Below, piece after piece: positions 1 to 35,432 of a stretch of 64,000 nucleotides of DNA (the first letter of the stretch is position 1; each line of letters begins with the position of its first letter). The notes beneath the pieces were generated by a model. It was not told the origin of the DNA and ran no database searches. It saw only the letters and a list, made by a program, of their open reading frames with translations. Made by a program: the position numbers and the translations under genes. The DNA comes from an uncultured bacterium (GTDB lineage: Bacteria; Omnitrophota; Omnitrophia; Omnitrophales; Abzuiibacteriaceae), in contig CAYLXA010000010.1 in the NCBI GenBank assembly GCA_964387845.1, positions 37,059 through 101,058 of the forward strand. The letters run 5' to 3'.

Positions 1-3000
1 AATGATCCTGATTCGAGCGTAAATATCTCACATATTGAAATAATTTCGCATTACGTTCATAAACACCTTCTTTTAGTTTGTCAGTACGCAAATGACCGCT
101 GACAGGATCCAAGGCATAAACTTTAGAGGAGCCCAATCCTGTGAAAAATAAAACGCCTTGAGTGAAGGTGATAAGCGGCGTTGAAACTATTTCATCGGGA
201 AATACTTGCTTCAAATCGAGAACGCCTTTTTCAAATTTGGCATGATCTGGCTTTCCGTCACTCATCCGAAACGCGTGAATATAAGCCTGGCCTTTCCGGG
301 CTCTGTCATCAACCGGATGGACATCTGTCTTTCGATAATAAGCAGCATACAAAGTTTGTCCATCTTCGCTCACGGCCAACGAGTTAATCCGTGCTTCCGG
401 GTCAATCTTTTTAACCTCGTCCGACAAATTTAAACGTCCGTTCGACCACTTTTCAGACATTAATGCTTTGCGATCTAAATCAACTGCTAAAATGTCACCC
501 GTGAACGAAGTCAAAATGTAAGCCGCATTTCCTCTGGCCACCATTTCACGAGGCATGTCCTGAGACGAGATATGAAAGAATCTCTCATTATTTTGCCGCA
601 ACTCGGAGCGGGTTTCGGGCTTCGCTTCCATTAGTTTTTTAATTTGAGCGCGTGCTTCTGCAATCATTTGATCCGTAATTTCACCCTGCTCTTTGCCGAG
701 CGCCCCCAAGATTTTCGAATCTAAATTGCTTTTTTGGCTGAGTTCTAAACTGTCATAACCGATGTCTTTTTTCAATTGAACGATCTTTTTATAATTAGAA
801 AAGGTGCGAAGAAAATTAACAACCGGATCCAGCGAGACATGCTGCCCATCGTCAGTTGCATAAGATCCCAGCAAATCCAGAGTGGTTGTTGCAATCATCA
901 ATTCAATTGCCTGGTTAAATTGATCTTCGCCGCGGATGCCTGCCTGCTCAAATTCCTGCCTTAATTTCTCCAATTGTTGAGCACGATGAATCGAAAACGC
1001 AAAAATGTGATGTTTAATGATTAATTTCAAAAGCGCATTGCTTGAAACGTCCATTTCACCGAAGTGAATATGATTGTCACTTAACACGCGAAATGATTCG
1101 AGTTCATGGCCCGGAAATGAATGGTCTCCATTCTCTTTGAACTGCATTTTGGTTTTCTTGCCGATATCATGAAGCACGATAAATGCTTCCAATATCGCGC
1201 GGTCTTTTGCATTCCAATCCTTAATCAGATTGATCGCATCTTTGGGCGCTGTAGTGTTTCGGTCAATTTGATTGAGTGCCGAGAGAATGGCTTGTAAATG
1301 GTCCTGAAGTTTAGCATTCTGGCCGCCTTCCCTATGAAACAGGCTGTGATAATGAGGCGTTTCCAAAAAATCCGCATATTGATCCGGAATGCCAGATAAC
1401 TGTTTCACCAATTCATCCAATGCTGAAGCCGGCCCATACTGGCGCAGCTCGGAGCGCTGTTCTTTTATCCATTGCACCAAACGCCGATAGTCAGTAACGC
1501 GAAGCGACATGCGGGAATTTCCGGGATTCGGCGCTATGATAAACTGGTCGGCGGTTCCTCGAACCTTTTGGTACACAAAGACGAGAAACATACCGTAAAA
1601 CCCCTGTGATTCCGGAAGGCCCCGGGCAACCCAATCCGCTTCAAGAATTGACCTGAGGACATTTGCCTTGATGGTCAACTCGTCCGGTTCCTTGTTTGCA
1701 TCTAATTGTGCGATGACGGATTGAAAATATTGCAGAACTACCGCGTTTCTCCGTTGACTTTGAAGATCATTCCCCAATCCTTCAAAAAGTTTTTGCGTAA
1801 AGCGCTGCGCATTACCCATTTGATTTAAATCACGGACCAATGCCCGATATTCGCGCCGGTAAGCAAGCCATTCGTCTTCCAAATGCATATCAACGGAGCG
1901 CACAACCTTCTTAAATGCTTCCGGACTTGTTATCAATGGCTCCATGTCTGATTTGCCATGCAATTGCTTAACAAAATCAATCAGATATTTCATGCCCTCA
2001 TCTGCTTCTCTGGCCAATGCGGCATTGATCAAGTGCGTACCTTCATGGATCATGACATATTTAATAATCAGAGGTGGAAAATGAAGCGCGAAGTCACGAT
2101 TGATAGTCACATGAGTCACGCTTCCGTCTAATGAAGTTTTTATACGTGCATACGAATGCCTCTGCAAAGAGCTTAATAAAGTGTCATCGAGAACGGGATT
2201 TTTTTTAAATGCCTCGATAAATTTTAATGCTGTTTTTTGATCGTCTAGGTTTGAAATTTCGGAAGCAATTTTTTCAAGGCGGTCCACAACCGCTTGAATT
2301 TCAGGGAGAAATTCGGGAGTTCTGATCCACCGCAAGATAGGCCATGCAGCAAATAAAGCGGTTGTTCCTGCACCGATTATTATTTGCCTGCGGCTTGGCA
2401 GCCAAAATTTCTTAGCAGGCTCTTCGCTTTTTACTCCCTGACGCCGCTCCTTATTTTTTCGTCCGTTCTCACTTGCGCGCAGCTCGGCGCGGGAATTTCC
2501 GCTTGGAAGCTTGATGTTAAATTCTGCGGCTGCGTGGGCCAGCGCACGGTCGCGGTGCTCTCCATACATCAAAGCTTCCCGATGATTGTTTAGGCCTTTT
2601 TTCTTCCGAATTCGCTTTGCTTTATGCACAGAAGCCCTGGTTGAGTACTTCAAAGAAAGCGGCGCTGCCGGAAGCTGAATGCCGAACCGTTTCGCAGCAT
2701 TGTAAAGCGCCCTGTCCCGATGCTTGCCTCGGGTTAACTCGCGGGCATGACTTTTCCATTTCTTCTTCTCGCGTTTTTTTAACTCCCTGCGAACAGATCC
2801 TTCGGTTGGATACTCAAAGGGCACACCTCTTTTTCTTAATTCGGAACGATGATTAGAAACATGAACTTTTGAGCGAACGGGAAGCTGCTCTGATAAAACC
2901 GCTTCGAGCATTTGATCTTTAATCCACCAATGAATCGGGCCATTTTGTTTTGTCCAATCACGAATCGCATAACCCACTTCCTTTTGAGCTCGAATAAATA

Positions 3001-6000
3001 AACTTTCCATATTCCCATTACCATTTTGTGCCCGCGCGATCTGCTCGGCGAGACCTCGATAAATTCTGGCCGGCTCGAACTGATTGCGCCCATTAGAAGA
3101 TTGATTTTTCTGAAACGTCGAAACCGCTTCCTCAATGCCGATATGTGTCAACGCATTCTTGGCATTAAAAGATGCGGCGATTCGATCTATTTGCCTTTTC
3201 ATTTTTCTAAAATATTTCTTCCACGAAACAAAAGCCGGTTTTTCTCCGGCGCGCCGGATATCGAGCCCCAGCAAGATGCGATTTTGAATCAATTCTCCTT
3301 CTGGAATTTGATCTAAATAAAGGCCGTATCGCCCCTCAAAATTCTTTTCGTATTCAATTAATTCATCGCGCCAATCTTCAAGTTGTTTGGCATCAACGGC
3401 ACCGATTAAATTTAGTTCATAAATCAGATGAAGAGCGCGGCCTGCAAGGCCCAACCACCTGACGGCGTGAAGTAATTCGGAAGATTGGGTGTGTTTTTTC
3501 GCTTTATTGAGCGAGCTTCGGATCTGAATTTTCAGAATTCTGGATTTTCTTTGGCGCCTGTCAAATTCTTCAAACTCATCTTGGCTCATAGTTGGCTCAA
3601 TAATTAGTTTGGCATTTTTAAATAACTGCTTGAGCGCTCGATCTTGATGCAAACCCCTCTCATCCGTCCATTGTTGCCATGTCTGCTCGGAGGATTTTGT
3701 CGGTGAAAGCGGCTTTCTATCCCGTCCGGCTTTCGTTATTTTAAGGTTTCCGGTCTCAGCCCAATAACCCAGCCGTTTTGCTTCAAGTTGAATCAGATAT
3801 CGCTCGGTTCCCTCAAGCGGACCCGGAACAAATTTTTGAACACCAACTAAACCACGGTCCGTCAGATAAGCACTATAAACAAAATCAACCAAATGGCCTT
3901 TTCGATCGGTCTTTGGATTGGTGCTATACAAATCGATCCGCTTTGTAAAAGTCCGGCCATCTTGCTTTTCTTGAACATTGCGAAACACCATGAAAAATCT
4001 TCGCGGCTTTTCCGGAGTACCTACGCCCGCCCACTTAGGCCGGAGCGGTATGAAAAACCTTGTGTTTTTTGGCTTTAAAAATATTCCTGTTTGATGGCGG
4101 TTATGGTTGTGGCTATGCGTTATGGTTTTTGGCTCAATGGGAAGCGGTTCCTCTCCCGTCTTGATCCACTGTTGTATGCGTCTTTGAAATTCTTCTTCAT
4201 CTTTTAGAAATTGCTTGGTTTCCAAATCCACGTAAAACACGACCTGATGCTCCGGTTTATTCGAAACTTTTCCGCGTGCGATTCTCCTCACCCGCCAATA
4301 AACATTCTGCTTGAATGAGAAAACGGTAATTTCTAGGTCATCCCGATTTGAAAAATATTGTGAGGGCAGATAGAGCCGGCGCATGTTTTTTGCTTTTGGT
4401 AAGGGGAAAAACACGGTATTGGCATATTTGCCTTTTCGGACATGTTTTAAAACAGCCTCTTTCAAAATTCTAACGGCAGGAGGGCCGGATTCGCGTTGAA
4501 AAGTTAAATGAAAAAGTTCCTTGCGGACCTGTTCAAACTGATCAGGAAAAATAATTCCTTGCTTAGGTTGAAAACCGGTTAACGCATCAAATTCGAGCGT
4601 TCCCACTGCAGGCCTGAAAGGAAGTAAATGAACCTGCATTTGCGGACGGCGTTTGTCATCCGCGGAATCCCGGGTCCATATGACGCGCGGTTCTCCGGTC
4701 GGATATTGAAAAAGAGCCCACTTAACCGGCACTTTTGCTTCATGCAATTGGCCGTTTCGAAGATAAGAAAAGGATGTAATGAAAGGCGGTCGTCTTTTTT
4801 GTAGTCGCTGAAAAATACTATCCTGGTATGCATGAAGGCGCCGCGGGATCATAAAGCCGGAGGGTTGCGCCCGTTGGCCCATTAAAAAATCCCGTAAAAG
4901 CTGAGAACGCGAGCTATCGCGAACTTTGTTTGTGCGAAAATGGTCGGCCAATTCCATTTCCCGAATCAAAAACCGGTAACTCTCCTGAGGATCCACTTGA
5001 ATTCCCAAACCTGCTTCGCCTCCGGTTGTGTTACCAATTTTCTGAGTTTGTGATGAAACATAAGAAATAAAACGGCCTTCCCCTGCCGCGGCCAATAATT
5101 TCTGTTCATCCCAATTGACCATGAATAAGCGCGGATCATCCGTTTTGAGGAGCGCTGAATGGCTTTCCGGTGACAGAAGCCAAGCACGCTCCAAAAGATC
5201 TGCCCGATCTAATAGTGCCGCTGTTGAAATCCGGCCAAGGCGAATAAAATCTGAAACAGTTATCTGATGCGCAAATAACTGACTCTCACGATATTGGCGT
5301 TCTTCATTCGAAAGCGAAGCCAGATAAGGAAGCGCGTCTGTTTGAGAAAGATCTTCTTCCTTTGAAATACGGCGCGACGAAGATGGGCGTGGCTTCGGAA
5401 CGATTTGCATTGTTTCGCTATTTTGACGCAGCTCGGAGCGGGATTGAGACTGTTTTTGGCGAATTAATTTCACGGCTTCACGAACGCTAACACCCTTGCC
5501 TCGCATATCCATGTAATCAAATGCTAAATCTGCGTTTCCGTTGCTTAATTTCCAGGCAATAAACGCATTAATCACCGCATACGGATACATCCATCCTTGT
5601 CCTTTGTCTGTTAATGGATTCGGATCAAAGACACCGAAATTTTGCCGAGTCATTCCAATGGCATTTTCTTCTGCATATTCGTAAGCTTTATCGCCGGCTT
5701 CCCTGAGACTTCGGTCCAATTCTGCAGGCAATTGATCAACATACATCATCATTACTTCCCCGATACTGGTACCTTTATTGAAATTTCCTTTTACATATTT
5801 TTCAAAGAAAGATTGTTTTAATATATTGAGATCCCCTTTACTTTTTTGCAAGATTCTTAATGCGGCATAACCTTCGGCAAGTAACGCATCGTTATCAATA
5901 TATTTCAAACCAGATCTAAGTTTTTTTCCAAATTTATGCGTCAATTCGTGAGCAATTAGAAGACGGAGTCCCCACCCAGAGCCCATGCGTTTTAATTCGT

Positions 6001-9000
6001 TAGGATTAATTCGAATTCCATAATCAAATCCCGTGGCAAGCGTGTCGGGAAGCATTGCCACAGCAGTCGGTTTATTTTTAATCCAGATTGTTACGCCGAC
6101 AGCAGCCAGACCGATAGCAGCAAAACCAAATAAAAAATCACGACGTGTTAGTTTTTGTTTCGATTTAGTTTTATTTTTTCTTTCTAAGAAATATTTGAGG
6201 GAAAATATTGAGAAAATTCCGCTCAACAATGATAAGAAAATGGATAAGAATGTTAGGTATGCTTTTGGCTGCTCGATTGCAACCCCTATTGAGTCTGTTA
6301 AACGATTAATCAATTCTTCTTTTTGTTGCACAGATAAATCAACGGCGTAACGATTTATAAAAAACTCAACTTCTTCCCGTACAATTTTTCTCTGTTCTTG
6401 GTCTAATTGAAAAACAAACGGTTTGTTCGATTCGCGCAACTCGGAACGGGATTTTCTCAAATCTATGTCAAGTAAATGCTGCAAAGCTAATCTCACCTTC
6501 TCTTCTTCCATGCCATCCAACTCTTGAAGTTGCCGGTCTGTAAATGCTTGGATCAAGCGTGCCATGGCTATGGACCGTGTAGAAAATTGATGCAGGTAAT
6601 CATCAACGATCTGTTTTTGTTTTGCGCTTACTTGTTCCATCGAAATTTCGTTACGAGGAGGAAGGTTAAATGGATTTGGCGAACTATCATTTTGATTTAA
6701 ATCATCGTAAGCTTGCCACAGAGCTCCGTTCTTACCGTAAAAATATTTGCCCCACAATTGCATTCTGATATCTGAAACTTCCTTCCATTCTTTGTCGGCA
6801 TCATTGATATCGGTTTCAAAAACGTATGGCGCTTTTTCCTCATTAATTCCAATCGACGCCTCAAGCGGACCAAAAATAAGCGCCCCAGATTCAGAATCGA
6901 CAGTGTTAAGGCCTTCTTGAACATAGCCATGCAGGGTATGATTCATGAGCCAATTGAAATAATCATGCACAACTTGATTAAATCTCTTCGCACTCATTGA
7001 TCTTCCATTCCAATGCTCTGCGAGAAGCCTGTCAAAAGCGCTTTTCTCTCTCGACGCGCCATTTTCTATAGGTTCTGAACGCAGCTCGGCCCTTGAGCCG
7101 AGCGGGCTCAAGGACGGCTTCGGCATCGCAGCTCGTTGCGGCAAAGTCCGAGCCGCCCTTTGTTGCAGCAGTTCCGACTTCGAATCGGCTGGAGTCGAAG
7201 TACGGACAGTCCTCAACTCCGCTCGAGCTGAGGACTCAGCGTGGACGGGGTTTAAATTAGGTGCTTTTTTTACAATTTTATTATCGCTATTTTTTATATT
7301 GACAAAGCCCTGATTGTTTGATATAAAAAAAGTCCCTTCGCGCGCAAACTTTAGGAAAGAAGAGAAAATACGATGACCAAAATTCCAAAGCCCGGCTCCG
7401 AATATTCTGAAGAGCGTGAATTCCGCGTCATTTTGGAGCATCTTGAAAGCCAGTTCCGTACTTTTGGTGAGGGGATGAACCGGATGGAACAAAAACTTCA
7501 AAAACTGGACGGCATTGATCGCAGACTGACTAGCGTAGAAGAAGATGTTGGATTGATTAAGGTCAATCTTAAACAAATTAATATTGATCTTAGAGAAGTC
7601 AGAGGTGATATCATGGTTCTGAAAACTGACGTTAGAGTCTTGAAAAGCGCTTTCAAACCATTCACCGCCCAAGTTTCCGATCACGAGCACCGGATTTCCG
7701 CTCTTGAGCGTTCCCGTTAAACGCAATTCCGATCGACTTAAAGGTAGCTGCAATACCTTCGTGATATGATTTTCAACCCATGGCCATAATTCTTTTGTGA
7801 TAGATTTGAAATAATCGGAAGAAACTTGATACGGGCGCGCGCCAAACTGGATCTGATTGGCCAAATCAACCAAATCTATTAAGTGCCGCGCATCGGCTCC
7901 GATGAGATAGAAAAGAAATAAGTATTCCTGGGCAATTGTCAAACCACCTTTATTTTGCCGACTAATGACCAGGAATGCGTGATATCTCAAAGATTCTTCC
8001 AAGATCACCTCTGGATTCCCTTTTGAATCAAACAAGCGAGCTTGTTTGATCCTTTGATTGAACAATGCCGTGTTGCGCTTTTGCTTTAATGCGTTTTCTA
8101 TAAACAACGGGTGATACAAATCTTGATTGTATGCCCAGTGCAGAAAACGGAATTGGCTGAAACTCTCGTAAAATTCGGATGAAATATTTTCAGCAGCTAA
8201 TCTTGAGATATCGGATAAATGTTTAACTGCAAAATTGGGAATTCCTGATTTTTGAGGCCACCTTCTTTCTCCTAACGGAATTTTCTGAAATTCTTGCATA
8301 ACACCTTGTAATTCTGAAACATTTTTCGGCATCCAATTTTTTGATTTTGACAAATAATGAACCCCATAAGCTTCCCTGACAATGACAGATGCCAAGTTTT
8401 CAACAAAATAATCCTCGGCATATGGAAATTGGTTAATCAATTTCACGGAATCAAAAAAAGATTTCACGTTGATTTCTAAATCGATTTTTCCGTTCTCATC
8501 AATTGTTTTTTGAAAATGAATCCCCAAATTAGCTGCTTCCTGCGGCAGCAGTTTAGCCTGTTTGACTAATTCGGAGTAATTCTTAAGAATGTCAGTATTC
8601 GGATATCCTTTGGCAATTAACCAGTCGATTGTTTTTTGAATAGCGTTTTGAACACTTGCTAAATCGGCACGCGAAAGTTGAATCTCGTCCATCAGGGATT
8701 TATTTTGTTTAAAAGATTTTCGAACGGCGTAAATCGTACCTGCTATCAATGAACCGCTGACGGTTAAGCCTAGCCCATATTTAATAACGGTTCTTCGTGA
8801 TAAATCCGTTCCTCCTTTTGTCTCTTTTGTTTTATCTTTTTCTTTTGTTCTCAGCTCGGACTTCTTTTGAGTATTTCGTATCTCGTGAAACGTATCTCGG
8901 TGCAGCGGCTCAGCGTGGTTTGCTTCGGGATTCGTGACCCGCGTATCGTGTTTCGCAACCGATTCACGATTCACGAACGACGATTCACTGGATTGATTTT

Positions 9001-9178
9001 GCACCAAACTTCTCAACTCGGAAAGTGCGGCGGGAGAATTGGCGGTGAGGCGCGGGACGTTCAGCGACGGAACGGAGGAAGCATAGGAATTAGGAATGGA
9101 CGGAGATAGTCCGATGGTGTTCTGGATTGAAAAGCAGAAGATGATCAGAATCGCGGTAATTTTAAGGTATTGCTTCAA
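1..9178 (-). CDS. giant multidomain membrane-anchored protein, 3'-partial (>=3059 codons; stop codon beyond window start). N to C: signal-anchor TM, S/P-rich linker, TM, alpha-rich domain, linkers carrying R[SA]ELR motifs, TM pair plus HELTH zincin-like module, ~980-aa unknown region, basic repeat region, TM plus HEGTH zincin-like module, HD phosphohydrolase domain, beta-propeller-like repeats
   Basis: Hand translation of minus strand: no TTA/CTA/TCA in frame (plus triplets starting at positions = 2 mod 3) from 9196 down to 1; upstream in-frame stop at 9197-9199. TTG at 9178-9176 is preceded by AGGAAA (9190-9185, 6-nt spacer) and followed by K-rich then hydrophobic N-terminus (LKQYLKITAILIIFCFSIQNTIG). 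HELTH at 5936-5950, HEGTH at 2033-2047, HD motifs (LFHREGG, VLHDIGK at ~1166-1171, FPGHELES, IIKHHIF, TTTLDLLG) between ~1000 and 1400. Absent from the ORF track because no stop codon lies inside the window. Confidence 0.6.
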   Translation of the reverse strand, partial: MKQYLKITAILIIFCFSIQNTIGLSPSIPNSYASSVPSLNVPRLTANSPAALSELRSLVQNQSSESSFVNRESVAKHDTRVTNPEANHAEPLHRDTFHEIRNTQKKSELRTKEKDKTKETKGGTDLSRRTVIKYGLGLTVSGSLIAGTIYAVRKSFKQNKSLMDEIQLSRADLASVQNAIQKTIDWLIAKGYPNTDILKNYSELVKQAKLLPQEAANLGIHFQKTIDENGKIDLEINVKSFFDSVKLINQFPYAEDYFVENLASVIVREAYGVHYLSKSKNWMPKNVSELQGVMQEFQKIPLGERRWPQKSGIPNFAVKHLSDISRLAAENISSEFYESFSQFRFLHWAYNQDLYHPLFIENALKQKRNTALFNQRIKQARLFDSKGNPEVILEESLRYHAFLVISRQNKGGLTIAQEYLFLFYLIGADARHLIDLVDLANQIQFGARPYQVSSDYFKSITKELWPWVENHITKVLQLPLSRSELRLTGTLKSGNPVLVIGNLGGEWFESAFQDSNVSFQNHDITSDFSKININLFKIDLNQSNIFFYASQSAINAVQFLKFLFHPVHPLTKSTELAFKMLQNDAEFTLFRIFGAGLWNFGHRIFSSFLKFAREGTFFISNNQGFVNIKNSDNKIVKKAPNLNPVHAESSARAELRTVRTSTPADSKSELLQQRAARTLPQRAAMPKPSLSPLGSRAELRSEPIENGASREKSAFDRLLAEHWNGRSMSAKRFNQVVHDYFNWLMNHTLHGYVQEGLNTVDSESGALIFGPLEASIGINEEKAPYVFETDINDADKEWKEVSDIRMQLWGKYFYGKNGALWQAYDDLNQNDSSPNPFNLPPRNEISMEQVSAKQKQIVDDYLHQFSTRSIAMARLIQAFTDRQLQELDGMEEEKVRLALQHLLDIDLRKSRSELRESNKPFVFQLDQEQRKIVREEVEFFINRYAVDLSVQQKEELINRLTDSIGVAIEQPKAYLTFLSIFLSLLSGIFSIFSLKYFLERKNKTKSKQKLTRRDFLFGFAAIGLAAVGVTIWIKNKPTAVAMLPDTLATGFDYGIRINPNELKRMGSGWGLRLLIAHELTHKFGKKLRSGLKYIDNDALLAEGYAALRILQKSKGDLNILKQSFFEKYVKGNFNKGTSIGEVMMMYVDQLPAELDRSLREAGDKAYEYAEENAIGMTRQNFGVFDPNPLTDKGQGWMYPYAVINAFIAWKLSNGNADLAFDYMDMRGKGVSVREAVKLIRQKQSQSRSELRQNSETMQIVPKPRPSSSRRISKEEDLSQTDALPYLASLSNEERQYRESQLFAHQITVSDFIRLGRISTAALLDRADLLERAWLLSPESHSALLKTDDPRLFMVNWDEQKLLAAAGEGRFISYVSSQTQKIGNTTGGEAGLGIQVDPQESYRFLIREMELADHFRTNKVRDSSRSQLLRDFLMGQRAQPSGFMIPRRLHAYQDSIFQRLQKRRPPFITSFSYLRNGQLHEAKVPVKWALFQYPTGEPRVIWTRDSADDKRRPQMQVHLLPFRPAVGTLEFDALTGFQPKQGIIFPDQFEQVRKELFHLTFQRESGPPAVRILKEAVLKHVRKGKYANTVFFPLPKAKNMRRLYLPSQYFSNRDDLEITVFSFKQNVYWRVRRIARGKVSNKPEHQVVFYVDLETKQFLKDEEEFQRRIQQWIKTGEEPLPIEPKTITHSHNHNRHQTGIFLKPKNTRFFIPLRPKWAGVGTPEKPRRFFMVFRNVQEKQDGRTFTKRIDLYSTNPKTDRKGHLVDFVYSAYLTDRGLVGVQKFVPGPLEGTERYLIQLEAKRLGYWAETGNLKITKAGRDRKPLSPTKSSEQTWQQWTDERGLHQDRALKQLFKNAKLIIEPTMSQDEFEEFDRRQRKSRILKIQIRSSLNKAKKHTQSSELLHAVRWLGLAGRALHLIYELNLIGAVDAKQLEDWRDELIEYEKNFEGRYGLYLDQIPEGELIQNRILLGLDIRRAGEKPAFVSWKKYFRKMKRQIDRIAASFNAKNALTHIGIEEAVSTFQKNQSSNGRNQFEPARIYRGLAEQIARAQNGNGNMESLFIRAQKEVGYAIRDWTKQNGPIHWWIKDQMLEAVLSEQLPVRSKVHVSNHRSELRKRGVPFEYPTEGSVRRELKKREKKKWKSHARELTRGKHRDRALYNAAKRFGIQLPAAPLSLKYSTRASVHKAKRIRKKKGLNNHREALMYGEHRDRALAHAAAEFNIKLPSGNSRAELRASENGRKNKERRQGVKSEEPAKKFWLPSRRQIIIGAGTTALFAAWPILRWIRTPEFLPEIQAVVDRLEKIASEISNLDDQKTALKFIEAFKKNPVLDDTLLSSLQRHSYARIKTSLDGSVTHVTINRDFALHFPPLIIKYVMIHEGTHLINAALAREADEGMKYLIDFVKQLHGKSDMEPLITSPEAFKKVVRSVDMHLEDEWLAYRREYRALVRDLNQMGNAQRFTQKLFEGLGNDLQSQRRNAVVLQYFQSVIAQLDANKEPDELTIKANVLRSILEADWVARGLPESQGFYGMFLVFVYQKVRGTADQFIIAPNPGNSRMSLRVTDYRRLVQWIKEQRSELRQYGPASALDELVKQLSGIPDQYADFLETPHYHSLFHREGGQNAKLQDHLQAILSALNQIDRNTTAPKDAINLIKDWNAKDRAILEAFIVLHDIGKKTKMQFKENGDHSFPGHELESFRVLSDNHIHFGEMDVSSNALLKLIIKHHIFAFSIHRAQQLEKLRQEFEQAGIRGEDQFNQAIELMIATTTLDLLGSYATDDGQHVSLDPVVNFLRTFSNYKKIVQLKKDIGYDSLELSQKSNLDSKILGALGKEQGEITDQMIAEARAQIKKLMEAKPETRSELRQNNERFFHISSQDMPREMVARGNAAYILTSFTGDILAVDLDRKALMSEKWSNGRLNLSDEVKKIDPEARINSLAVSEDGQTLYAAYYRKTDVHPVDDRARKGQAYIHAFRMSDGKPDHAKFEKGVLDLKQVFPDEIVSTPLITFTQGVLFFTGLGSSKVYALDPVSGHLRTDKLKEGVYERNAKLFQYVRYLRSNQDH
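7079..7250 (-). other. GC-rich hairpin-dense segment inside the giant ORF, encoding a disordered linker with three R[AS]EL[RL]-type motif copies
   Basis: Mutually exclusive stems gctcggc(ccttga)gccgagc and ccttgagcc(gagcg)ggctcaagg at 7083-7111; further stems acttcga/tcgaagt (~7174-7198) and agtcctca/tgaggact (~7208-7237). Confidence 0.4.
7299..7327 (+). promoter_or_regulatory. sigma70-type promoter: -35 TTGACA (7299-7304), 17-nt spacer, extended -10 TGaTATAAA (7319-7327), with an AT-rich UP-like tract at 7262-7298
   Basis: Exact hexamer matches and spacing read directly from the sequence; lies inside the giant minus-strand ORF and points at the 7373 ATG. Confidence 0.55.
7373..7720 (+). CDS. 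small coiled-coil protein (115 aa) encoded antisense to, and codon-aligned with, the giant minus-strand ORF; could be an overlapping antisense gene or a shadow ORF
   Basis: ORF track entry (MTKIPKPGSEYSEEREFRVILEHLESQF...). RBS AGGAAAGAAGAG at 7353-7364, 8 nt before the ATG. Near-consensus sigma70 promoter 46 nt upstream. Leu and Ser codons avoid TTA/CTA/TCA, so the opposite-strand frame stays open. Confidence 0.45.
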   Translation: MTKIPKPGSEYSEEREFRVILEHLESQFRTFGEGMNRMEQKLQKLDGIDRRLTSVEEDVGLIKVNLKQINIDLREVRGDIMVLKTDVRVLKSAFKPFTAQVSDHEHRISALERSR

Positions 9179-9275: not shown

Positions 9276-9551
9276 TTATCTGAAATCTTTATACTTATCA
9301 TTCAGCGTTTTTTGGATATCTTTTACCTGCGCTTTTGCCTGCTCGCCCAACCCAATTTGGGTCTGAGTATAACCGCCGGTTAATTGATCAAACAGGCCTT
9401 GTGAGGCGGCCTGCTTTCCCTGCTTCGGATGTTTTTGTTCCTTCTTCCCGATCCACTGGTCTAAGTAGCCCATTTTCCCCGCGATTAAGAACATAATGAT
9501 AATCAGCGCAATTAAAAGATTGATTAAATTGAACCCTTTTTCGTTTTTCAT
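9276..9551 (-). CDS. small prepilin-like N-terminal domain protein (91 aa; G-FNLIN motif, no Glu5)
   Basis: Internal ATG of track ORF 9276..9740 preceded by AAAAGGAGACATC; N-terminus MKNEKGFNLINLLIALIIIMFLIAG resembles a class III signal peptide/pilin helix; the upstream Cys/Arg-rich extension is rejected. Confidence 0.5.
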   Translation of the reverse strand: MKNEKGFNLINLLIALIIIMFLIAGKMGYLDQWIGKKEQKHPKQGKQAASQGLFDQLTGGYTQTQIGLGEQAKAQVKDIQKTLNDKYKDFR

Positions 9552-17694: not shown

Positions 17695-18063
17695 TTAAGG
17701 GGTAAGGGATAAGCTTTTGCGAAGTCCGGAAAGCATTCTTCCGATTTCGTTACAGTAGTTAATAAGCATTTCATAATGTTCATGATCAACATAATTTAAA
17801 TCCCTGCTTAAAAGTAATAAATATTTGGTTTCTTCAAGTGAAGAATTCGACAAATTCAGAAAATGCAAATAATCTTTTGTACTTTTTCGTTTTTGTCCTT
17901 CTACAATGTTTGTGGCAATCGAAACTGTGCTTCTTCGTATTTGAGAAATAATTCCAAATTTTTCATCATTTGGAAAACGTTTCGTTAACTTATAAATTTC
18001 TAAAATTAAAGTGTGAGATTTTTGCCAAACTTTTAAATCTTGAAATGTTTCTATCCTATACAT
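17695..18063 (-). CDS. four-helix-bundle protein (TIGR02436-like)
   Basis: 122 aa; [30 protein letters not shown] typical of this family. Confidence 0.7.
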
Positions 18064-18111
18064 ACACCCTCCATGAATTTTATTTGTTATTCGTGGAGGG
18101 AAATTGTTTTA

Positions 18112-27034: not shown

Positions 27035-28207
27035 TTAAGCCAAAAAACTATAAGCCGGTAAATTGTCTCCGATCAGCGGAAGCGCGTATTCGCCAAATGC
27101 TTTGGTGACAAAATTTCCCTCACGATTGATAAACCGATCCGGAAGCTTCTTTTCGGTAGCGGCCACGTGCTCCAGCGGAATTTGAGAATATAAAACGCGG
27201 TATGGCTTTGTTGAAACCCGCTCGATGGCAACCATGACACCCGAATAATCGGATCTTGCCAAGCGGACCGCGTGCCGGCCGCACTGAAAAGCTTCTTTTT
27301 GATCAATTTTCGAAATATACGGCATCGACATGCGCTGAAGGGTACCGGGTTTATCAAACCGAGCGCGAATCTTGAGTTTCTGGGCAATAAGTCCGCACAA
27401 ATACTGCGCTGCGCCTTCGACATACACATGGCCGAATTTATCTTTTTTAACGGCTTGATTGGCAGAACCGATTCGCTTTCCGTTTTTGTCGCGGATAGTC
27501 TCCGAGATAACGATCAATGCATAACCAAATTTCTTATGAATTTTCCGGACATCTTGTATGAATTTCTTTTCATCAAACGCCCGCTCCGGAAAATACAAAA
27601 GATGTGGGCCATCCTCCGGCTTCTGTATGGCCAGCGTCGAAGCGGCCACGATCCAGCCCGAGTTTCTGCCCATCACTTCAATAATTTTGACCGGATCCGT
27701 CGTCCTTGCGGCACGCGTATCCACGGAAGCTTCCTGGGCAGCAATTGCAAAAAAACGCGCGACACTGCCGTAACCCGGCGCATGGTCCATGCCGGGCAAA
27801 TCGTTATCAATCGTTTTAGGAATTGCAATGACTTGAAGGTCTTGCTCATCTGCGCGTGCCGTTTTCTCCAAGAGGAGCCCCGTTGCGGCCGAATCATTGC
27901 CACCGATTAAAAACAAGACGCTGATTTTCTTTTTACTCAACGTTCTAACAATGGCTCTTGCTTCTCTAACGTTTAATTTATGCCGGCAGGTTCCGAGCGC
28001 CGAAGACGGTGATTGCTTTAAATTTTGGATGGTTTTTTTCGGAAGATGCGTTAAATCAATCCAATCTGATTTTAAAAGCCCGAGGACACCAAATTTGACA
28101 CCGTAAAGCTTTGAGAATTCCCTGCTCGATTCGATCACGCCCGCCAAACTTTGATTGATAACGGCTGTCGCGCCGCCGGACTGCAAAATAACCGCACGTT
28201 TTTTCAT
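27035..28207 (-). CDS. pfk: 6-phosphofructokinase (likely PPi-dependent type)
   Basis: ILQSGGATAVINQS and LFLIGGNDS PFK motifs; 390 aa. Confidence 0.75.
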   Translation of the reverse strand: MKKRAVILQSGGATAVINQSLAGVIESSREFSKLYGVKFGVLGLLKSDWIDLTHLPKKTIQNLKQSPSSALGTCRHKLNVREARAIVRTLSKKKISVLFLIGGNDSAATGLLLEKTARADEQDLQVIAIPKTIDNDLPGMDHAPGYGSVARFFAIAAQEASVDTRAARTTDPVKIIEVMGRNSGWIVAASTLAIQKPEDGPHLLYFPERAFDEKKFIQDVRKIHKKFGYALIVISETIRDKNGKRIGSANQAVKKDKFGHVYVEGAAQYLCGLIAQKLKIRARFDKPGTLQRMSMPYISKIDQKEAFQCGRHAVRLARSDYSGVMVAIERVSTKPYRVLYSQIPLEHVAATEKKLPDRFINREGNFVTKAFGEYALPLIGDNLPAYSFLA

Positions 28208-28980
28208 GATGAATGTTTCATTATAAATTGAATAGGCCGTTCGTAAAAATCCGGACCGGCTTGAAACGGCAGTTCATTATGTGTCCCGCCCCGAACCTCA
28301 AATAATTCTTTCGGCTGAGGCGCTGCTTCAAAAAGTTGTTTTCCCATTTCGAACGGACAGATTTCATCGTCGGTGCCGTGAACAATCAATAAAGGTGATT
28401 TCAATTTCGATACTTTTTCGTCGTTTCGCATTTGAAATCCCGAAAGCCATCCCGACGGAATGAAAGGATAATGCTTTTTTGCCATATCGGCAAGCGAAGT
28501 AAAGGGGGCTTCTAAAATTACCGCTTTGTATGCCGAATGAGACGCAAGCTCTAAGATTGGGGCCGCGCCGATGGATTCGCCGTATAGAATAATATCCGAA
28601 CTTTTAATTGTTTTTTCTTTTGTAAGCCAGTCAAGCCCCGATTGCGCATCAGCATACAAGTCTTTTTCGCCCGTGATTTTTCCTTCACTTTTTCCGTAGC
28701 TGCGATAATCCAGCAAAAAAACCGAAAACCCGCGCTTGATCCATTCTTCCGCTTTAAATAAGCGGTCCGCGATATTGCCCGCGTTGCCGTGTAAAAAGTA
28801 AACAACGCCTTTGGGCCCGGGCGCAGGCAAAAACCATCCGGAGATTTTAACATTGTCAGATGTCATAAGGAGAACCGTCTCCGACTTAAGGCCTAAATTC
28901 TCAGGCAAAACACCGTAGGATCCGGCCGGAAAGAAGATAAACGATGCGATCATGATGTTCAGGAGTTGTGCGATATTCAT
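28204..28980 (-). CDS. alpha/beta hydrolase (S9/dienelactone hydrolase-like)
   Basis: GESIGAAP nucleophile elbow; HGTDDE near C-terminus. Confidence 0.65.
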   Translation of the reverse strand: MNIAQLLNIMIASFIFFPAGSYGVLPENLGLKSETVLLMTSDNVKISGWFLPAPGPKGVVYFLHGNAGNIADRLFKAEEWIKRGFSVFLLDYRSYGKSEGKITGEKDLYADAQSGLDWLTKEKTIKSSDIILYGESIGAAPILELASHSAYKAVILEAPFTSLADMAKKHYPFIPSGWLSGFQMRNDEKVSKLKSPLLIVHGTDDEICPFEMGKQLFEAAPQPKELFEVRGGTHNELPFQAGPDFYERPIQFIMKHSS

Positions 28981-29910: not shown

Positions 29911-32900
29911 TTAGGAGAATAATGCGGGTTGTCTGCGAGTCGACCACTGAGGAAAAAGAGGAGATAACAGTTGGCTGACATCAATTCCTAAGCCGGCAAA
30001 TCCTGAAAAAACAGGCGGAACCGGCGGAATATTGGGAAAAAGGAGGTTTCCGTTAAAAAACACATTTCCGGAAGGCTCATTGGGGCCGCCTAAATCGAAA
30101 TTCAGGTCGGTATTCGGATTCACTAATTCACCATTAATATCACCGTCGATGCTAATCGATGTACCGCCGCCATCTTGGCCGCCTGCGATTGTGGTCAGAA
30201 CCGCACCGTTATTAATATCAACATCGATGCCGTCACCGGTGACGCCAATCGTACCGCCTGCTGTTATACTGGAATCGGATCCGGCCGTAATATTATTCGC
30301 TGCACCGTTTCCATCCAGGACATTTCCGGTTGTGGCTTCAATCATCACACTGCCATTGCCGGCATTAATGGTTCCTAAAATAAGGTCACCTGTCGGCGTA
30401 ATCACGCAAATATCGCCATTCGCAACGGATGAATTGGCATTGATCGTCGCCCCATCGGCCTCCATGATGAAAATACCGCCGGTTTGGCTGATCGCGTTGA
30501 TCGTATTCGCTGCGGTATTCATTTTATTGAGAAGTGTTCCGACCGAATTTCCAAAAAATTCAATATTGCTGCTCGTAATCACCGTTCCGATATTTCCGTC
30601 ATCAAAAACATTGCCTGCTTGCGCCGTAAAACTCGCTGAGTTGGTCGTGTTCACACTGCCGACGGTGATATCGCCCGCCGTTGTGGTCAATGAAAAATCA
30701 GAATAACCGTTGATGCCTGTTGCCGAAGAAGCGCCGCCTGCTGTTGCGGTGACTGAGCCATTGGTCAAAAAGTTAGCGCCCGTAAAATTCATCCCGTTCA
30801 AACTGTTCATCGCAATGTTGCCATTCGCCGTGCTTTGAGCCACAAATGAATTCACATTAAAATCAATGTCGCCGTTTGCAAGTGCAGAACCAATATTCCC
30901 AAGCGCCGTCAAGGAAAGTGAATTTGCATTAATCCGCGTTGATTGCACAAAATCATCCACGATATTTCCGCCGGATGCGGTCAATGTTACATCGCCGTTG
31001 CCGGCATTGATACTTTGCAACGCCGCATCACCCAGAACCATATCGCCTGTGGCGCTATTAATATTGATATCGCCATTCGCAGCCGAAGAATCCAAACCTT
31101 GAATGGTGACCGCGTCTAATTCATCAATAAAAATACCGCCGTTATTTGCAGTAATGCTGAGCGTAGCTGCTGCTGTGTTAATTTTGTTAGCAAGTGTCCC
31201 AACGGCATCTCCGATTAATGTGATGAGCCCGCCTGTGATTCTGGTAGCGTTGTTGGCGTCATCCACCAAATTTCCAGCTGCCGCCGAAAGCACCACATCA
31301 CCCAAGCCTGCGTTGATGGTTCCAATGGTTAAATTGCCGAGTGTTGAAACAACATCAATCGTGCCATTTGCAGCCGAAGAATTCATATTGTTCAAAGTTG
31401 CGCCATTGGATTCACGCAAGAAAATGCCGCCGGCGTTTGCGGTTGCGTTCAATGTTGCTGCCGTCGTATTAATTCTCGCCGCCAAAGTTCCGATTGCATT
31501 TCCGACAAGCGTAATCACGTTGCCGCTTAAATTAGAAGTAGCATCTACCAGATTTCCCGCGAGCGCTGTTAAACCGATATTTCCGGCTGTCGTGATAGTG
31601 CCAAGATTTAGATCGCCGGTTGTGGACGTCACATTGATATCGCCGGAACCCGTTGTGGCACCGACGGTCGCTCCGTTGGATTCTGTGACGTTGATTTCGC
31701 CTGTGCCGGTTCCTGTGATGTTAAGAGTTGTGGCCGTGGTATTAATCGCAGCGCCTGATTGACCCACGTCACCGTCCGCGCCGCCTGCAATTAAGTTCAC
31801 AATCACACCTGCAACACTGGAAGCCACGCCACCCAATAAGTCACCTGCCAAAGCTGTTAAAGTTACATTGCCGGTTGTGGAGATGGTTCCAAGCGTTAAA
31901 TCACCGGTGGTTGTTCTGACATCAATATTGCCGGAACCTGTCGTGGCGCCGACTGTCGCTCCGTTCGACTCTGTTACGAAAATATCGCCTGTGCCCGCAC
32001 CGGTTAAGTTTAACGTGCCGGCCGTGGTCATAATTCGTCTCGTAGAAGTTCCGACATCACCGTCCGCGCCGCCCGCTGCGAGATTGACTGTAGTGCCGGT
32101 TACGGATGAATCCGCGTTCGTGTCGGTCACATCGCCATTTGAAGCAGCTAACGTCACTGCATTCGTAGCGCTCACGGTCCCGACTTCGAGATCACCCGAA
32201 GTGGTTGTCATGGAAAAATTTGTGTAGCCGGTTGCGCCGGTAATGGACGAAGCACCCTCGGTTGTAACTGTCACAGACCCGGCGGTAACAAAATCAGCGC
32301 CCGTTAAAGTCGCGCCGCCGCCTGCGATTCTCGCAAAAATATCACCATTACCAGAACTTGTCAGCGCTCCGACATTAGTAGTGGATGTGATATCCACGTC
32401 GCCATTCGCAGCTGATGAACCGATATTACTGGACGCGGTCATGTTCACAGTTGAAGCAGAAACCGCCGTCGCTTGATTTCCGTCATCTAAAATGTGCCCG
32501 GCGTTGGCATTAACCGTCACCGTGTTTTCGGCATTCACAGTGCCAAGCGTCACATTACCGGTGGTTGCCGTTAAATCGATATTGTTTGTGCCGGTCCCGG
32601 TGGCAGAAGCATTGACGACCGTTAAATCACCGGCAGCCGTAATAATAATTGAATCATTTACGGCAGATGCGTTGTTAACCGTCAGCGCCTGATCATTGGT
32701 AACGATAATTCGCCCATTGGCAGCAGCTGCATTCAGGGAGTTTGCACTAAGGTCAATATCGCGATTGCCGGTCGTTTGTCCGATATCCACCGCCGCATTG
32801 AGCGTTACTTCGTCGCCCGTAATTCGGGTTGCATCATCGTTATCATCCAGAATCGATCCGTTGGTTGAAGTAACCGACACATCCCCGTTTCCGGCATCCA

Positions 32901-35169
32901 CAGCCCGGACTGTAATATTGCCGCGGCCTGAAATGGCAATATCGCCATCGTTCGTTATGACAGATGAGTTATTCGCCATCGAGAAATTGCCGCTCGAATC
33001 ATTATCGCTGTTGGCCGTCAGTGTAATATTTCCGCCTCCTGTACTCTGAACGATGGTATTTGAGGAAATCGAAAGATTGTTGCCTGCCAGCAAATTAATG
33101 CTGCCGGCAACGGATTGCACATCACTGTTGACGTTGAGATTGTTGAATGCGTTCGCGGTGACGCCGCCGTTGCCCTGGACCAGTCCGGCTAATGTAATAT
33201 TGTTAAAACTGGTAGACGCTCCGGTTCCGATCGTGATTTGACTATTCGCGCCGGTTGCAGATACATTGCGAATTGTGGTATTACCGGAACCGTAAATTTC
33301 AACATCGCCGCCGGCCAAAATTCCGGAATTGTTCGCCATAGTGAATGTTCCGCTTCCGTCATTGTTTGCATCCGCGTTCAGCAAAACATTTCCGTTGGTG
33401 GATTCAATTTCATAAGCAACGCTTCCGTTGGAATTGTTGCTGATTGAAATTCCGTCATTGGCCATGACTGTAATCCCGGCTGCAGCTGATAAATAAGGAA
33501 CCGTGAGATTTCCGCCGTTAATGGTCACGCTGTCGAAAGCCCGGTTAGTTCCGACCCGGATTTGTCCGTTTGTCGAGCGCACTTCGCGTAAAGTTGCAGA
33601 AGCTGCGGATGACCCGTCAATGGTGATATCACCAAACGCCAAAAGCTTCGAACCATTGTTCATCGTAAAAACGCCGTCATCGTTTGTATTGTTCGCATCG
33701 GTGATAACGGTAATAGTTCCGCCAGTTGACTGGATTGTGACGTTGTTATTAATGATGATGCCGCCGGCTGAGGTAAGCAAAATGTCGCCAGCAATAATTT
33801 GATTGGTAGAGATGGTAATATTTGCGTCCGGATCAAAAATAACGAGCCCGCCCGTGAAGCCATCCGCCACAACTTGCAGAACGGTACCGCCGACATGTAA
33901 ATCGCCGCCGAAAGCCGACAGGTCGAGCGTCCCGCCGTTTCCGGTAATACCGCCCGAGATATCAATCAAAGCATCCTGCTGAAAATCAGTACTGCCATAA
34001 AGGGAATTGATATAGATATTGCCGCCTTGCGACAATTCGCCGATTCCGCGGGATGAAACGAGAGAGCCGGAAAGTAAATAAGTTCCGTACAGTGAAACAA
34101 TATCAATGTTGCCGGCCGTGCCGTAATCCAACGCATTGGCTGAAATAATTCCAGAATGCTCAATCGTGTCGGACAAAATATTGATTGAGCCTCCGTTCGG
34201 ATTTTCTACCGAACCATCCGCAATAATGCTTCCGGAATTCACAATCGCACCGTTGGCAACCAATTCGATAACGCCATTTTGATTTACAACGCTCGTTGCT
34301 TCAATGATGCCGGTGTTGTTTACAAGATAAGTAAAAAGATCATTAACTGCCTCAGCTTGTAAAATAATTTTTCCGCCGTTTGCGCGAATCACGCCGGAAT
34401 TCAGAATCGCATCTTCGGCATCGGTAATGGTAGAAGCCAGCTGCTCATCGACAACCAGATTGATCAAGCCCTGCGGATCAAACGTGAGCGTCAGTTTTTC
34501 GCCGCTTGCCATGACAATGGAACCAAGGTCCGCAATCACGCTGCCGGAATTAGCGACCGATCCGCCCAAAAGCACCACAAAACCGCCCGGTTGAGCCGTG
34601 ATGGTTCCTTGATTGACCACACTGCCCGCCTGCGAACCGTTTTCAAAAATTAAACTGCCGGCCAGAAAATTTGAATTTGAAAGCGTGAGACTTGATGCAA
34701 TAAAACCCGCAACATTGATGCTGGCGCCTGCGCCGATATGAATGCCCGCCGGATTGACGAGAAAAACATAACCGTTTGAGAAAATGGAGCCAAAAATATT
34801 GGACGTCGCTCCGCTGATATCATTATTGAGGATAGAACCGCCCGCAATGGAGAAAAGAAATGAAAATGTTTGCCCGATGTCGATATTAAAACCGTTCCAA
34901 TTGAGAATCGTGCCGTCCTGAACGTCCGTAAAAGAATATCCGGAACCGGTATCCGTGCAGCCGCCGTATCCACCGGTTACAACCGTAACGCCGTCGCAAG
35001 CAAAGGCAGAAAAAACCTGAAGGAAAACAAACAGGAAAATAGCGAGAAACGCAACGGGCTTGGAGCGCTTTCGTATTGTAATCAGCTTTCCTTGTCTCGG
35101 AAAATCCATTAACACTCTTTCCTCTTGGATTTCCCTGAGTTCGGAAGCTGACTGCCATGACGGTTGCAA
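29911..35169 (-). CDS. two-partner-secretion exoprotein TpsA-2 (filamentous haemagglutinin family, 1752 aa)
   Basis: N-terminal TPS/haemagglutination-activity domain (NWNGFNIDIGQTFSF...NPAGIHIGAGASINVAGFIASSL), followed by long Gly/Asn/Thr/Ala-rich beta-helical repeats. Confidence 0.8.
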   Translation of the reverse strand: MQPSWQSASELREIQEERVLMDFPRQGKLITIRKRSKPVAFLAIFLFVFLQVFSAFACDGVTVVTGGYGGCTDTGSGYSFTDVQDGTILNWNGFNIDIGQTFSFLFSIAGGSILNNDISGATSNIFGSIFSNGYVFLVNPAGIHIGAGASINVAGFIASSLTLSNSNFLAGSLIFENGSQAGSVVNQGTITAQPGGFVVLLGGSVANSGSVIADLGSIVMASGEKLTLTFDPQGLINLVVDEQLASTITDAEDAILNSGVIRANGGKIILQAEAVNDLFTYLVNNTGIIEATSVVNQNGVIELVANGAIVNSGSIIADGSVENPNGGSINILSDTIEHSGIISANALDYGTAGNIDIVSLYGTYLLSGSLVSSRGIGELSQGGNIYINSLYGSTDFQQDALIDISGGITGNGGTLDLSAFGGDLHVGGTVLQVVADGFTGGLVIFDPDANITISTNQIIAGDILLTSAGGIIINNNVTIQSTGGTITVITDANNTNDDGVFTMNNGSKLLAFGDITIDGSSAASATLREVRSTNGQIRVGTNRAFDSVTINGGNLTVPYLSAAAGITVMANDGISISNNSNGSVAYEIESTNGNVLLNADANNDGSGTFTMANNSGILAGGDVEIYGSGNTTIRNVSATGANSQITIGTGASTSFNNITLAGLVQGNGGVTANAFNNLNVNSDVQSVAGSINLLAGNNLSISSNTIVQSTGGGNITLTANSDNDSSGNFSMANNSSVITNDGDIAISGRGNITVRAVDAGNGDVSVTSTNGSILDDNDDATRITGDEVTLNAAVDIGQTTGNRDIDLSANSLNAAAANGRIIVTNDQALTVNNASAVNDSIIITAAGDLTVVNASATGTGTNNIDLTATTGNVTLGTVNAENTVTVNANAGHILDDGNQATAVSASTVNMTASSNIGSSAANGDVDITSTTNVGALTSSGNGDIFARIAGGGATLTGADFVTAGSVTVTTEGASSITGATGYTNFSMTTTSGDLEVGTVSATNAVTLAASNGDVTDTNADSSVTGTTVNLAAGGADGDVGTSTRRIMTTAGTLNLTGAGTGDIFVTESNGATVGATTGSGNIDVRTTTGDLTLGTISTTGNVTLTALAGDLLGGVASSVAGVIVNLIAGGADGDVGQSGAAINTTATTLNITGTGTGEINVTESNGATVGATTGSGDINVTSTTGDLNLGTITTAGNIGLTALAGNLVDATSNLSGNVITLVGNAIGTLAARINTTAATLNATANAGGIFLRESNGATLNNMNSSAANGTIDVVSTLGNLTIGTINAGLGDVVLSAAAGNLVDDANNATRITGGLITLIGDAVGTLANKINTAAATLSITANNGGIFIDELDAVTIQGLDSSAANGDININSATGDMVLGDAALQSINAGNGDVTLTASGGNIVDDFVQSTRINANSLSLTALGNIGSALANGDIDFNVNSFVAQSTANGNIAMNSLNGMNFTGANFLTNGSVTATAGGASSATGINGYSDFSLTTTAGDITVGSVNTTNSASFTAQAGNVFDDGNIGTVITSSNIEFFGNSVGTLLNKMNTAANTINAISQTGGIFIMEADGATINANSSVANGDICVITPTGDLILGTINAGNGSVMIEATTGNVLDGNGAANNITAGSDSSITAGGTIGVTGDGIDVDINNGAVLTTIAGGQDGGGTSISIDGDINGELVNPNTDLNFDLGGPNEPSGNVFFNGNLLFPNIPPVPPVFSGFAGLGIDVSQLLSPLFPQWSTRRQPALFS

Positions 35170-35432
35170 CCGTTTTAGGCTCTTGAGTTTTGCCTCATTC
35201 TACGCTCAGTCGCTTACGCGCTGGGCTTCGAAGAGCTCTACGAAGCCAAGCCGCGAAGGACTTGGCGAAGTAGAGGCCTTACTCTTTCGAGTAATTTGCC
35301 TCCGCCATACAGCGTAGCGGATCCGCCACGCTTTGTGGCGGACTTTCGTTCAGAGATAAGATGATAAAACTAAAAAAAATTTTACCATATTGAGAAGATA
35401 TTGCAAAAATTAAGATAAAAAACAGATAAAAC

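Follow-up and report, generated by a model that had tools for sequence, protein, structure and literature searches.

We have analysed a giant gene at the left edge of a 64-kb stretch of DNA from an uncultured bacterium (contig CAYLXA010000010.1, positions 37,059 to 101,058; hereafter the window, meaning this whole stretch of 64,000 nucleotides (nt)), and in particular two HExxH motifs encoded within it. On the minus strand, a frame of 3065 open codons runs from window position 9196 down to position 2, where it exits the window. Its complete product, P0001, is a protein of 4114 amino acids (aa) that starts with a TTG codon at window position 9178; 3059 of its codons lie within the window (1..9178, minus strand), residue n corresponding to window positions 9179-3n to 9181-3n, and the gene continues past the left window edge (L001 10001-22345). 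P0001 is organised as a chain of about 17 cassettes with a linker pentapeptide, [RK][SA]E[LMVI]R, between them, and aa 7-25 form an N-terminal Sec-like hydrophobic segment. The original prediction had seen in the two motifs, HELTH and HEGTH, a pair of membrane-anchored zincin-like modules of one polypeptide that might process it at the repeated linker. Much of its description is borne out: both motifs belong to the same open reading frame (ORF), a database search recovered the identical 4114-aa protein from an NCBI record and from an independent Logan assembly, the peptides quoted are all correct by translation, and anchors are found N-terminal to both motifs on the minus strand. Two HExxH motifs, where 0.16 are expected from the composition over 4114 aa, represent a modest excess as a standalone statistic (Poisson P = 0.012). 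The case is reinforced by the position of each motif, 43-92 residues past an anchor preceded by a pair of arginines (RR), and by the conservation of the HEGTH cassette in its entirety in a distant protein, P0004.

Searching with the whole protein retrieved P0002 (3275 aa) and P0003 (2294 aa), both encoded by close relatives, and an HMMER search with the HEGTH domain against 1.84 billion protein representatives added the distant P0004 (6523 aa) and a 125-aa fragment, P0005. In its strict form the linker pentapeptide occurs 15 times in P0001, ten of these copies lying in the part encoded within the window, and relaxing the first position raises the count to 17; shuffling the residues of P0001 2000 times gave a mean of 0.09 and a maximum of 2 copies. 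Strict copies number 10, 11 and 15 in P0002, P0003 and P0004, respectively, those of P0004 being more varied at the fourth position (RSE[MVILAQ]R). Across the 64-kb window the strict motif with R at the first position is present nine times in the frame of the giant ORF; its only three further occurrences lie in different frames, where there is no substantial ORF. Conservation at the linkers is limited to the five residues and all synonymous codons for Arg, Ser and Leu are used, which places the selection on the peptide and not on the DNA. A role of the linker as a DNA-level repeat or recombination site was accordingly rejected, since only ~15-27 peptide-coding nucleotides recur with synonymous variation among these codons. 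The idea that the middle residue might serve as an internal start codon (NTG) was likewise rejected since TTA, CTC, CTT, CTA and GTT are also present at this position. The pentapeptide is probably a protease recognition site; in the literature that we searched on the linker motif and on bacterial polyproteins we found no paper describing it. At the extreme C-terminus of P0001, a 28-residue segment is bracketed by two linker copies ('...LRSELRNVQFES...ESLRSELRAAWAQLTAA').

P0001, P0002 and P0003 share a chromosomal locus, in which a small pilin-like ORF and a DUF819 gene precede the giant gene and an aconitase-family gene follows it. The N-terminal hydrophobic segment is 98% identical between P0001 and P0003, and a reading frame upstream of P0002 encodes a similar one. 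A C-terminal domain of ~210 residues is common to all three proteins (57-73% protein identity; 92% nt identity between the loci of P0001 and P0003), and the interiors differ, related strains carrying different cassettes at the same locus. The interior blocks of homology between P0001 and its relatives, such as aa 111-482 (81-84% protein identity with P0002) and aa 3456-3579 (97% with P0003), have both of their ends at linkers, which makes the linkers the boundaries of exchangeable cassettes. One cassette segment of 380 nt is shared by two strains at 98.9% identity (L083 10103-10482 and L001 20355-20733), their flanking housekeeping DNA being only 78-92% identical; the comparison of the two sequences suggests a recent exchange of cassettes between giant genes. 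Those cassettes that can be identified are of cytoplasmic type (methyltransferase, HD, NUDIX, uridine-kinase-like, metallophosphatase, APH kinase, receiver and PEP-utilising domains), and most cassettes are orphans. The conserved C-terminal domain found only the contig of P0002 itself among species-representative genomes and JGI metagenome contigs, and no match among viral contigs; neither HExxH module matched viral contigs, phage records or plasmids. A word-indexed homologue search with the C-terminal-domain alignment returned nothing and is uninformative, its source P0001 having been missed as well. P0004 (L084 346-19917) contains three receiver domains, an APH-type kinase, a metallophosphatase, a uridine-kinase-like and a PEP-utilising domain among others; its gene is followed by PIN-domain and nucleotidyltransferase (NTP_transf_8) genes, and the GC content of its contig is 51%, compared with 45% in the lineage of the window.

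The HEGTH cassette (m9; aa 2235-2574, 1457..2476, minus strand, as for all features of P0001) is opened by the linker RAELR (aa 2230-2234, 2477..2491) and closed by RSELR (aa 2575-2579, 1442..1456). It comprises a basic N-region, an RR-preceded anchor (SRRQIIIGAGTTALFAAWPIL) and a soluble domain of ~290 residues, in which a putative zincin-like core of ~110 residues is followed by a helical C-terminal part of ~180 residues. The anchor helix (aa 2265-2285, 2324-2386, QIIIGAGTTALFAAWPILRWI) is less hydrophobic and stays under the Kyte-Doolittle cut-off of 1.7; together with its RR of the twin-arginine translocation (Tat) type it spans aa 2262-2285 (2324..2395, SRRQIIIGAGTTALFAAWPILRWI), the equivalent in P0004 being IRRDLGIGAAALVALGIGAVVA. 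HEGTH (aa 2378-2382, 2033..2047) lies within 'IIKYVMIHEGTHLINAALAREADEG' at the C-terminal end of a predicted active-site helix, and the helix after it provides E2391 and E2394-G-M (1991..2008) as candidate third ligands. The sole full homologue of this cassette is a linker-bounded cassette of P0004 (aa 1835-2247) which includes an RR anchor of its own, IRRDLGIGAAALVALG. The soluble domains share 34% identity (E = 1e-39 in the HMMER search mentioned above), and the full P0004 cassette matches m9 with E = 1e-49 (local phmmer). The alignment keeps 'V.INRDFAL..P..I.KYV.IH..TH..NA.L.....EGM' and, further along, 'EDE..AY', 'KLFEGLG' and 'QRRN'. At the motif itself P0004 reads HDATH: both His, the EGM and the RR anchor are retained and the Glu is replaced by Asp. 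The conservation of the His and Glu positions, on which the original prediction had made its case depend, is thus split in this one homologue, holding for both His and failing for the catalytic Glu.

An AlphaFold model of the HEGTH domain, built from an alignment of three sequences, reached a mean pLDDT (predicted local distance difference test) of 64.7 and a pTM (predicted template modelling score) of 0.65 and is poor past residue 120; the pLDDT is 80-95 over most of residues 11-100, with a dip to 58-71 at residues 51-70. In domain numbering, the model has two helices (7-21 and 26-41) ahead of three strands (43-46, 59-63 and 69-75). A short helix (76-81) leads to the helix that holds HEGTH (84-99, pLDDT ~86-88; HEGTH at 93-97), after which comes a helix (101-120) that holds E106 and E109-G-M. 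Two zincin features are seen in this three-sequence model, the HExxH being placed on an alpha-helix and the core having the expected topology. The zincin core is described as a three-stranded sheet with an N-terminal helix, the HExxH helix and a Glu helix (PMC5512222). Because the topology of the model is the same, the HEGTH module reads as zincin-like and we consider such a fold likely. The few compact Foldseek alignments of the model were to selecase, SprT-like and 'metallopeptidase domain' proteins, none of them significant, and the segment around the motif matches the YgjP-like family of Pfam (PF01863) with E = 0.0019 and 15.5-18.7 bits, the cut-off being 26 bits. Nothing was found in NCBIfam, PHROGs or PDB sequences, and in none of these comparisons was a curated zincin-family threshold reached. 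Most likely, the HEGTH cassette contains a divergent zincin-fold domain of the minigluzincin, M48-M56 or WLM-like kind. For the HEGTH module, the earlier guess of a minimal gluzincin or M48-like fold agrees with this model topology. Neither cassette has a Pfam M48 or M56 match at E up to 10.

Peptidase activity of the HEGTH module, as judged from these sequences, is uncertain. In zincins of the neprilysin type an exchange of the HExxH Glu for Asp is inactivating, and P0004 carries Asp in place of the catalytic Glu while keeping both His and the EGM. A zincin-derived fold that is no longer a peptidase and serves in metal binding, as a structural element, as a sensor or in some other chemistry would fit this substitution, and also the conserved helical part of ~180 residues after the core, which has no known counterpart. 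The inactive modules envisaged earlier as an alternative belong here. However, HExxH is intact in both P0001 modules, a single homologue is too few to deem the Glu dispensable, and an Asp could act as a weaker general base; we regard a loss of peptidase function as unlikely.

The HELTH cassette (m6; aa 916-1246, 5441..6433) lies between two RSELR linkers (aa 911-915, 6434..6448, and aa 1247-1251, 5426..5440) and is an orphan. Some 60 soluble residues are followed by a first transmembrane (TM) segment, TM1 (aa 975-993, 6200..6256, LTFLSIFLSLLSGIFSIFS; Kyte-Doolittle 19-residue mean 2.03), a basic loop, an RR-preceded TM2 (aa 1015-1033, mean 2.23; aa 1011-1033 with the Tat-type RR, 6080..6148, TRRDFLFGFAAIGLAAVGVTIWI) and an HExxH domain of 213 residues. 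The TM pair claimed at 6080-6256 is therefore real, consisting of aa 975-993 and aa 1015-1033. HELTH (aa 1077-1081, 5936..5950), a candidate zinc-binding and catalytic motif, is found within 'LRLLIAHELTHKFGKK' 43 residues after TM2, and a strand-like 'YGIRINPNEL' lies ahead of it. Twenty residues past the second His the sequence 'LLAEGYA' follows, in which E1102 of the EGYA (aa 1102-1105, 5864..5875) is, by motif, a candidate third ligand. Gluzincins are characterised by the pattern HExxH-x18-24-E, as with 'NEGFA' in family M1, and the HELTH cassette with its HExxH-x20-EGYA is plausibly, if as yet unproven, a gluzincin as well.

The competing explanation for this cassette is that the HExxH of HELTH arose by chance, within a helical domain that is no zincin, the HEGTH module being the only zincin-like one. 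Chance alone should produce ~0.16 HExxH in a protein of this size, and the 43 residues between TM2 and HELTH are short for the N-terminal sheet of a zincin. The module has no homologue and no Pfam match at E up to 10, nor an NCBIfam, PDB, PHROG, plasmid or viral match; a word-indexed homologue search with the soluble domain also gave no match, though it missed its source P0001 too and is uninformative for fragments of giant proteins. The single-sequence AlphaFold model is all-helical and of low confidence (pLDDT 42.2), a helix-turn-helix at HELTH and E1102 being predicted at a pLDDT below 50 only, and the HELTH and HEGTH modules have no detectable similarity by BLASTP or by hhalign, where the profile of the HEGTH family was used. 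On the other hand, the spacing to 'LLAEGYA' resembles that of gluzincins, the strand-like 'YGIRINPNEL' before the motif compares with 'HVTINRDFAL' in the HEGTH module, and the layout, an RR anchor followed by the motif, is that of the HEGTH cassette. Weighing these points we find a chance origin of HELTH doubtful, while taking it seriously.

Three cassettes of P0001 have Tat-type anchors, with the RR motifs TRRDFLF, SRRQIII and SRRTVIK in TRRDFLFGFAAIG, SRRQIIIGAGTT and SRRTVIKYGLGL. These signals are internal and not N-terminal, lying at aa 127 (m2), 1011 (HELTH cassette) and 2262 (HEGTH cassette) of 4114, at 16, 95 and 27 residues after a linker. The third anchored cassette, m2 (aa 111-481, 7736..8848; SRRTVIKYGLGL, SRRTVIKYGLGLTVSGSLIAG), has no HExxH and is present in P0002 at 81-84% protein identity; it reads 'VIVREAYGVHYL' roughly where the other anchored cassettes have their HExxH. 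A paralogous relationship among the HExxH modules or with m2 was rejected for lack of significant similarity in BLASTP and hhalign, the latter giving no significant score for m2 against the HEGTH family, and an m2/m9 alignment at 29% identity was dropped at an hhalign probability of 1%. In both HExxH cassettes the domain has one or two anchors on its N-terminal side and no TM segment after it. Around TM2 of the HELTH cassette there are eight Lys or Arg residues in the preceding loop and two after the helix, and around the HEGTH anchor five before the helix and two after. This bias predicts an N-in/C-out orientation and hence HExxH domains on the trans side of the membrane. The Rieske protein is the classic example of a protein inserted by Tat with a signal-anchor, and the one encoded in the window has an N-terminal extension of 33 aa followed by RRKFL and the anchor ('SPGRRKFLSWFVVAWIGFAAATGGAL', 'GRRKFLSWFVVAWIGFAAATGG'). 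The P0001 cassettes share the format of such proteins: an N-extension, [ST]RRxhh, a moderately hydrophobic uncleaved anchor and a cofactor or metal domain, which in P0001 is predicted to lie on the trans side. They differ in that their signals are internal to a 4114-aa ORF and would function only once released by proteolysis. Since internal anchors of the Tat type make sense only after such a release, they lend indirect support to cleavage at the linkers.

Taken together, we propose a reading, with a probability of roughly 0.45, in which the HExxH modules are zincin-like cargo with Tat-type anchors: cassettes within a modular giant protein whose units are set apart by linkers, and not the enzyme that processes it. 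The 4114-aa precursor would be synthesised in the cytoplasm and its linkers would be cut by a protease other than the two HExxH modules. The freed cassettes could then insert N-in/C-out by means of their RR anchors, like the Rieske protein of the same organism, and the zincin-like domains would act, or merely bind metal, on the periplasmic side.

According to the self-processing hypothesis it is instead one of the HExxH modules, or the two of them, that would cleave the polyprotein at its RSELR linkers, either in cis or in trans. It draws on the likely zincin-like fold of the HEGTH module, on the recurrence of its cassette in the second polyprotein family, that of P0004, and on the lack of any further detectable protease-like module in P0001; there is also a precedent in the polyvalent proteins, which are predicted to be processed by zincin-like domains (PMC5512222). 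The comparison with the related proteins does not sustain it. P0002, P0003 and P0004 have the same linkers, 10-15 in each, and not a single HExxH; neither module has a homologue in P0002 or P0003, and the copy in P0004 is HDATH with an Asp for the general-base Glu. Moreover, the charge bias puts the domains across the membrane, apart from the cytoplasmic-type cassettes such as methyltransferase and HD. Processing in trans by zincin cassettes encoded elsewhere in the genomes of P0002, P0003 and P0004 may occur. Overall we consider self-processing very unlikely, and the analysis removes the attractive, poorly supported idea that the HExxH modules are processing enzymes.

Several observations weigh against the cargo reading as well. 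For the HELTH module the argument stays at the level of sequence motifs. The HEGTH model was built from only three sequences and Foldseek returned no significant match for it, and the HDATH of P0004 is an argument that the conserved function may be other than peptidase catalysis. The RR anchors score 15.6-18.4 bits with the TAT_signal family of Pfam, under its gathering cut-off of 22.7, and 12.1 with TIGR01409, against 16.7; being internal, they could serve Tat only if cleavage precedes, and the Sec-like segment at the N-terminus of P0001 could drive co-translational insertion of the uncleaved chain. Cleavage at the linkers is itself something that we infer from their conservation and from their position at cassette boundaries, and no protease candidate was found in the 64-kb window or among the other modules.

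The closest known folds are those of the minigluzincins (proabylysin, projannalysin), selecase and the M48/M56 families (HtpX, Ste24, BlaR1), to which the P0001 modules have no significant sequence similarity. In M48/M56 proteins a catalytic domain is embedded among multiple membrane spans, whereas in P0001 a single RR-preceded anchor stands before a soluble domain; P0001 further differs from this whole group by a third ligand that is a candidate only, a homologue with HDxxH and the additional helical extension of ~180 residues. The WLM, SprT and YgjP-like (DUF45) zincins have an extra His a few residues past HExxH. This His is absent after the motif in P0001 (HLINAAL) and P0004 (HRRNARL), and the score of the HEGTH module, 18.7 bits, falls short of the curated threshold of 26 bits. 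The polyvalent proteins of phages and plasmids, in which the zincin-like metallopeptidase is the commonest domain and is predicted to process them (Iyer et al. 2017, PMC5512222), resemble P0001 in being giant and in mixing unrelated enzymatic domains, and their one to five interspersed zincin-like domains have the same core topology. In contrast to them, P0001 is chromosomal, lies among housekeeping genes and has no viral or plasmid relatives. A fixed pentapeptide marks off its cassettes (PMC5512222 does not use the word 'linker' in its main text), its zincin-like modules bear Tat-type anchors and its sister proteins are without zincin modules.

In the multifunctional autoprocessing repeats-in-toxin (MARTX) proteins, effector arrays are released by an internal cysteine protease domain that cuts after Leu in loose linkers. 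The likeness to P0001 consists in conserved termini around a strain-variable, recombining array of unrelated modules, and in MARTX effectors being freed by cleavage of the linkers between domains. However, the Pfam scans of P0001, P0002, P0003 and P0004 revealed neither RTX or glycine-rich repeats nor a C80 cysteine protease domain, and the cut sites of MARTX are not a fixed pentapeptide such as the one at which P0001 would be cut. The whole of P0001 might be secreted as a multi-effector toxin comparable to MARTX or polyvalent proteins, its zincin-like cassettes being effectors in or at the membranes of prey or host. The conserved C-terminal domain and the N-terminal hydrophobic segment would in this case flank a strain-variable, effector-like array at a single locus, with NUDIX, HD, methyltransferase, kinase-like and receiver domains among the cassettes. 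The CoxA protein encoded in the window is 75% identical to that of 'Omnitrophica bacterium GWA2_52_8' and at most 67% to anything else; with this best match of a single marker the window points tentatively to the Omnitrophota, a phylum whose giant proteins have been proposed to serve in predation and to undergo cleavage (bioRxiv 10.1101/2023.11.21.568195). Against a toxin speak the lack of detectable RTX repeats, of a cysteine protease domain and of any known secretion-signal domain, a P0004 without evident N-terminal signal, the absence of a phage or conjugative context within 10 kb and that of viral, phage or plasmid relatives. A toxin therefore appears improbable to us.

The neighbourhood of the giant gene in the window is that of an ordinary chromosome, with leuB, asd, truA, an ABC transporter, glgA, thiG, cytochrome oxidase and bc-type complexes and a two-partner secretion cluster. 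Directly upstream of the giant gene, a 91-aa ORF (9276-9551, minus strand) has a prepilin-like N-terminus (MKNEKGFNLINLLIALIIIMFLIAG) and is kept at the same position in the P0002 and P0003 loci. Within P0001, ahead of the HEGTH cassette, a small and very basic cassette (aa 2116-2230, 2492-2836, minus strand) contains an internal duplication, 'GKHRDRALYNAAKRFGIQLP' and 'GEHRDRALAHAAAEFNIKLP'. A dedicated protease gene beside the giant gene was sought and not found in the 64 kb, where the sole peptidase-family matches are to a generic alpha/beta hydrolase (28204-28980). A small gene for a four-helix 'bAvd / 23S rRNA IVP' protein lies beside leuB (~17700-18100, minus strand) and is annotated only in the Logan table (L001 1116-1484). 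The two-partner secretion cluster (29911-42368, minus strand) encodes two proteins with a two-partner secretion domain (1752 and 986 aa), a ShlB/FhaC-type transporter (575 aa) and a 567-aa protein with a match to a Dictyostelium-type repeat. An aerobic respiratory block (48833-63045, minus strand) contains the genes for SCO1, COX3, a UbiA-family protein (heme O synthase-like), CtaA, COX1 and COX2, a 935-aa multi-haem cytochrome c, a split cytochrome b, the Rieske protein with its RRKFL Tat-type anchor and a HEAT-repeat protein. An ORF6N-domain gene follows at 63187-63687 (minus strand).

The setting of the two modules in fact matters more than the modules themselves: in at least two lineages, proteins of 2300-6500 residues are divided into exchangeable cassettes by a fixed pentapeptide. 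The most novel aspect is the architecture that this suggests, namely a true polyprotein encoded on the chromosome of an Omnitrophota-like bacterium, with strain-variable cassettes that would be freed at the pentapeptide, some of them routed by internal Tat-type signal-anchors and two of these zincin-like. We put this forward tentatively, as a possible account that falls short of a probable one. In the literature on Omnitrophota giant proteins the question of cleavage has been raised and no cleavage sites have been reported (bioRxiv 10.1101/2023.11.21.568195). The linker makes this question concrete by predicting where the cuts would fall. Should the modules be active zincins, they would represent two orphan metallopeptidase lineages with an unusual mode of delivery, by a Tat-type anchor exposed only on release from a giant precursor. 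If the polyprotein architecture is true, it would amount to a virus-like strategy of expression and cassette shuffling in a cellular genome, together with a site-specific protease, and the same linker is used by the distant family of P0004.

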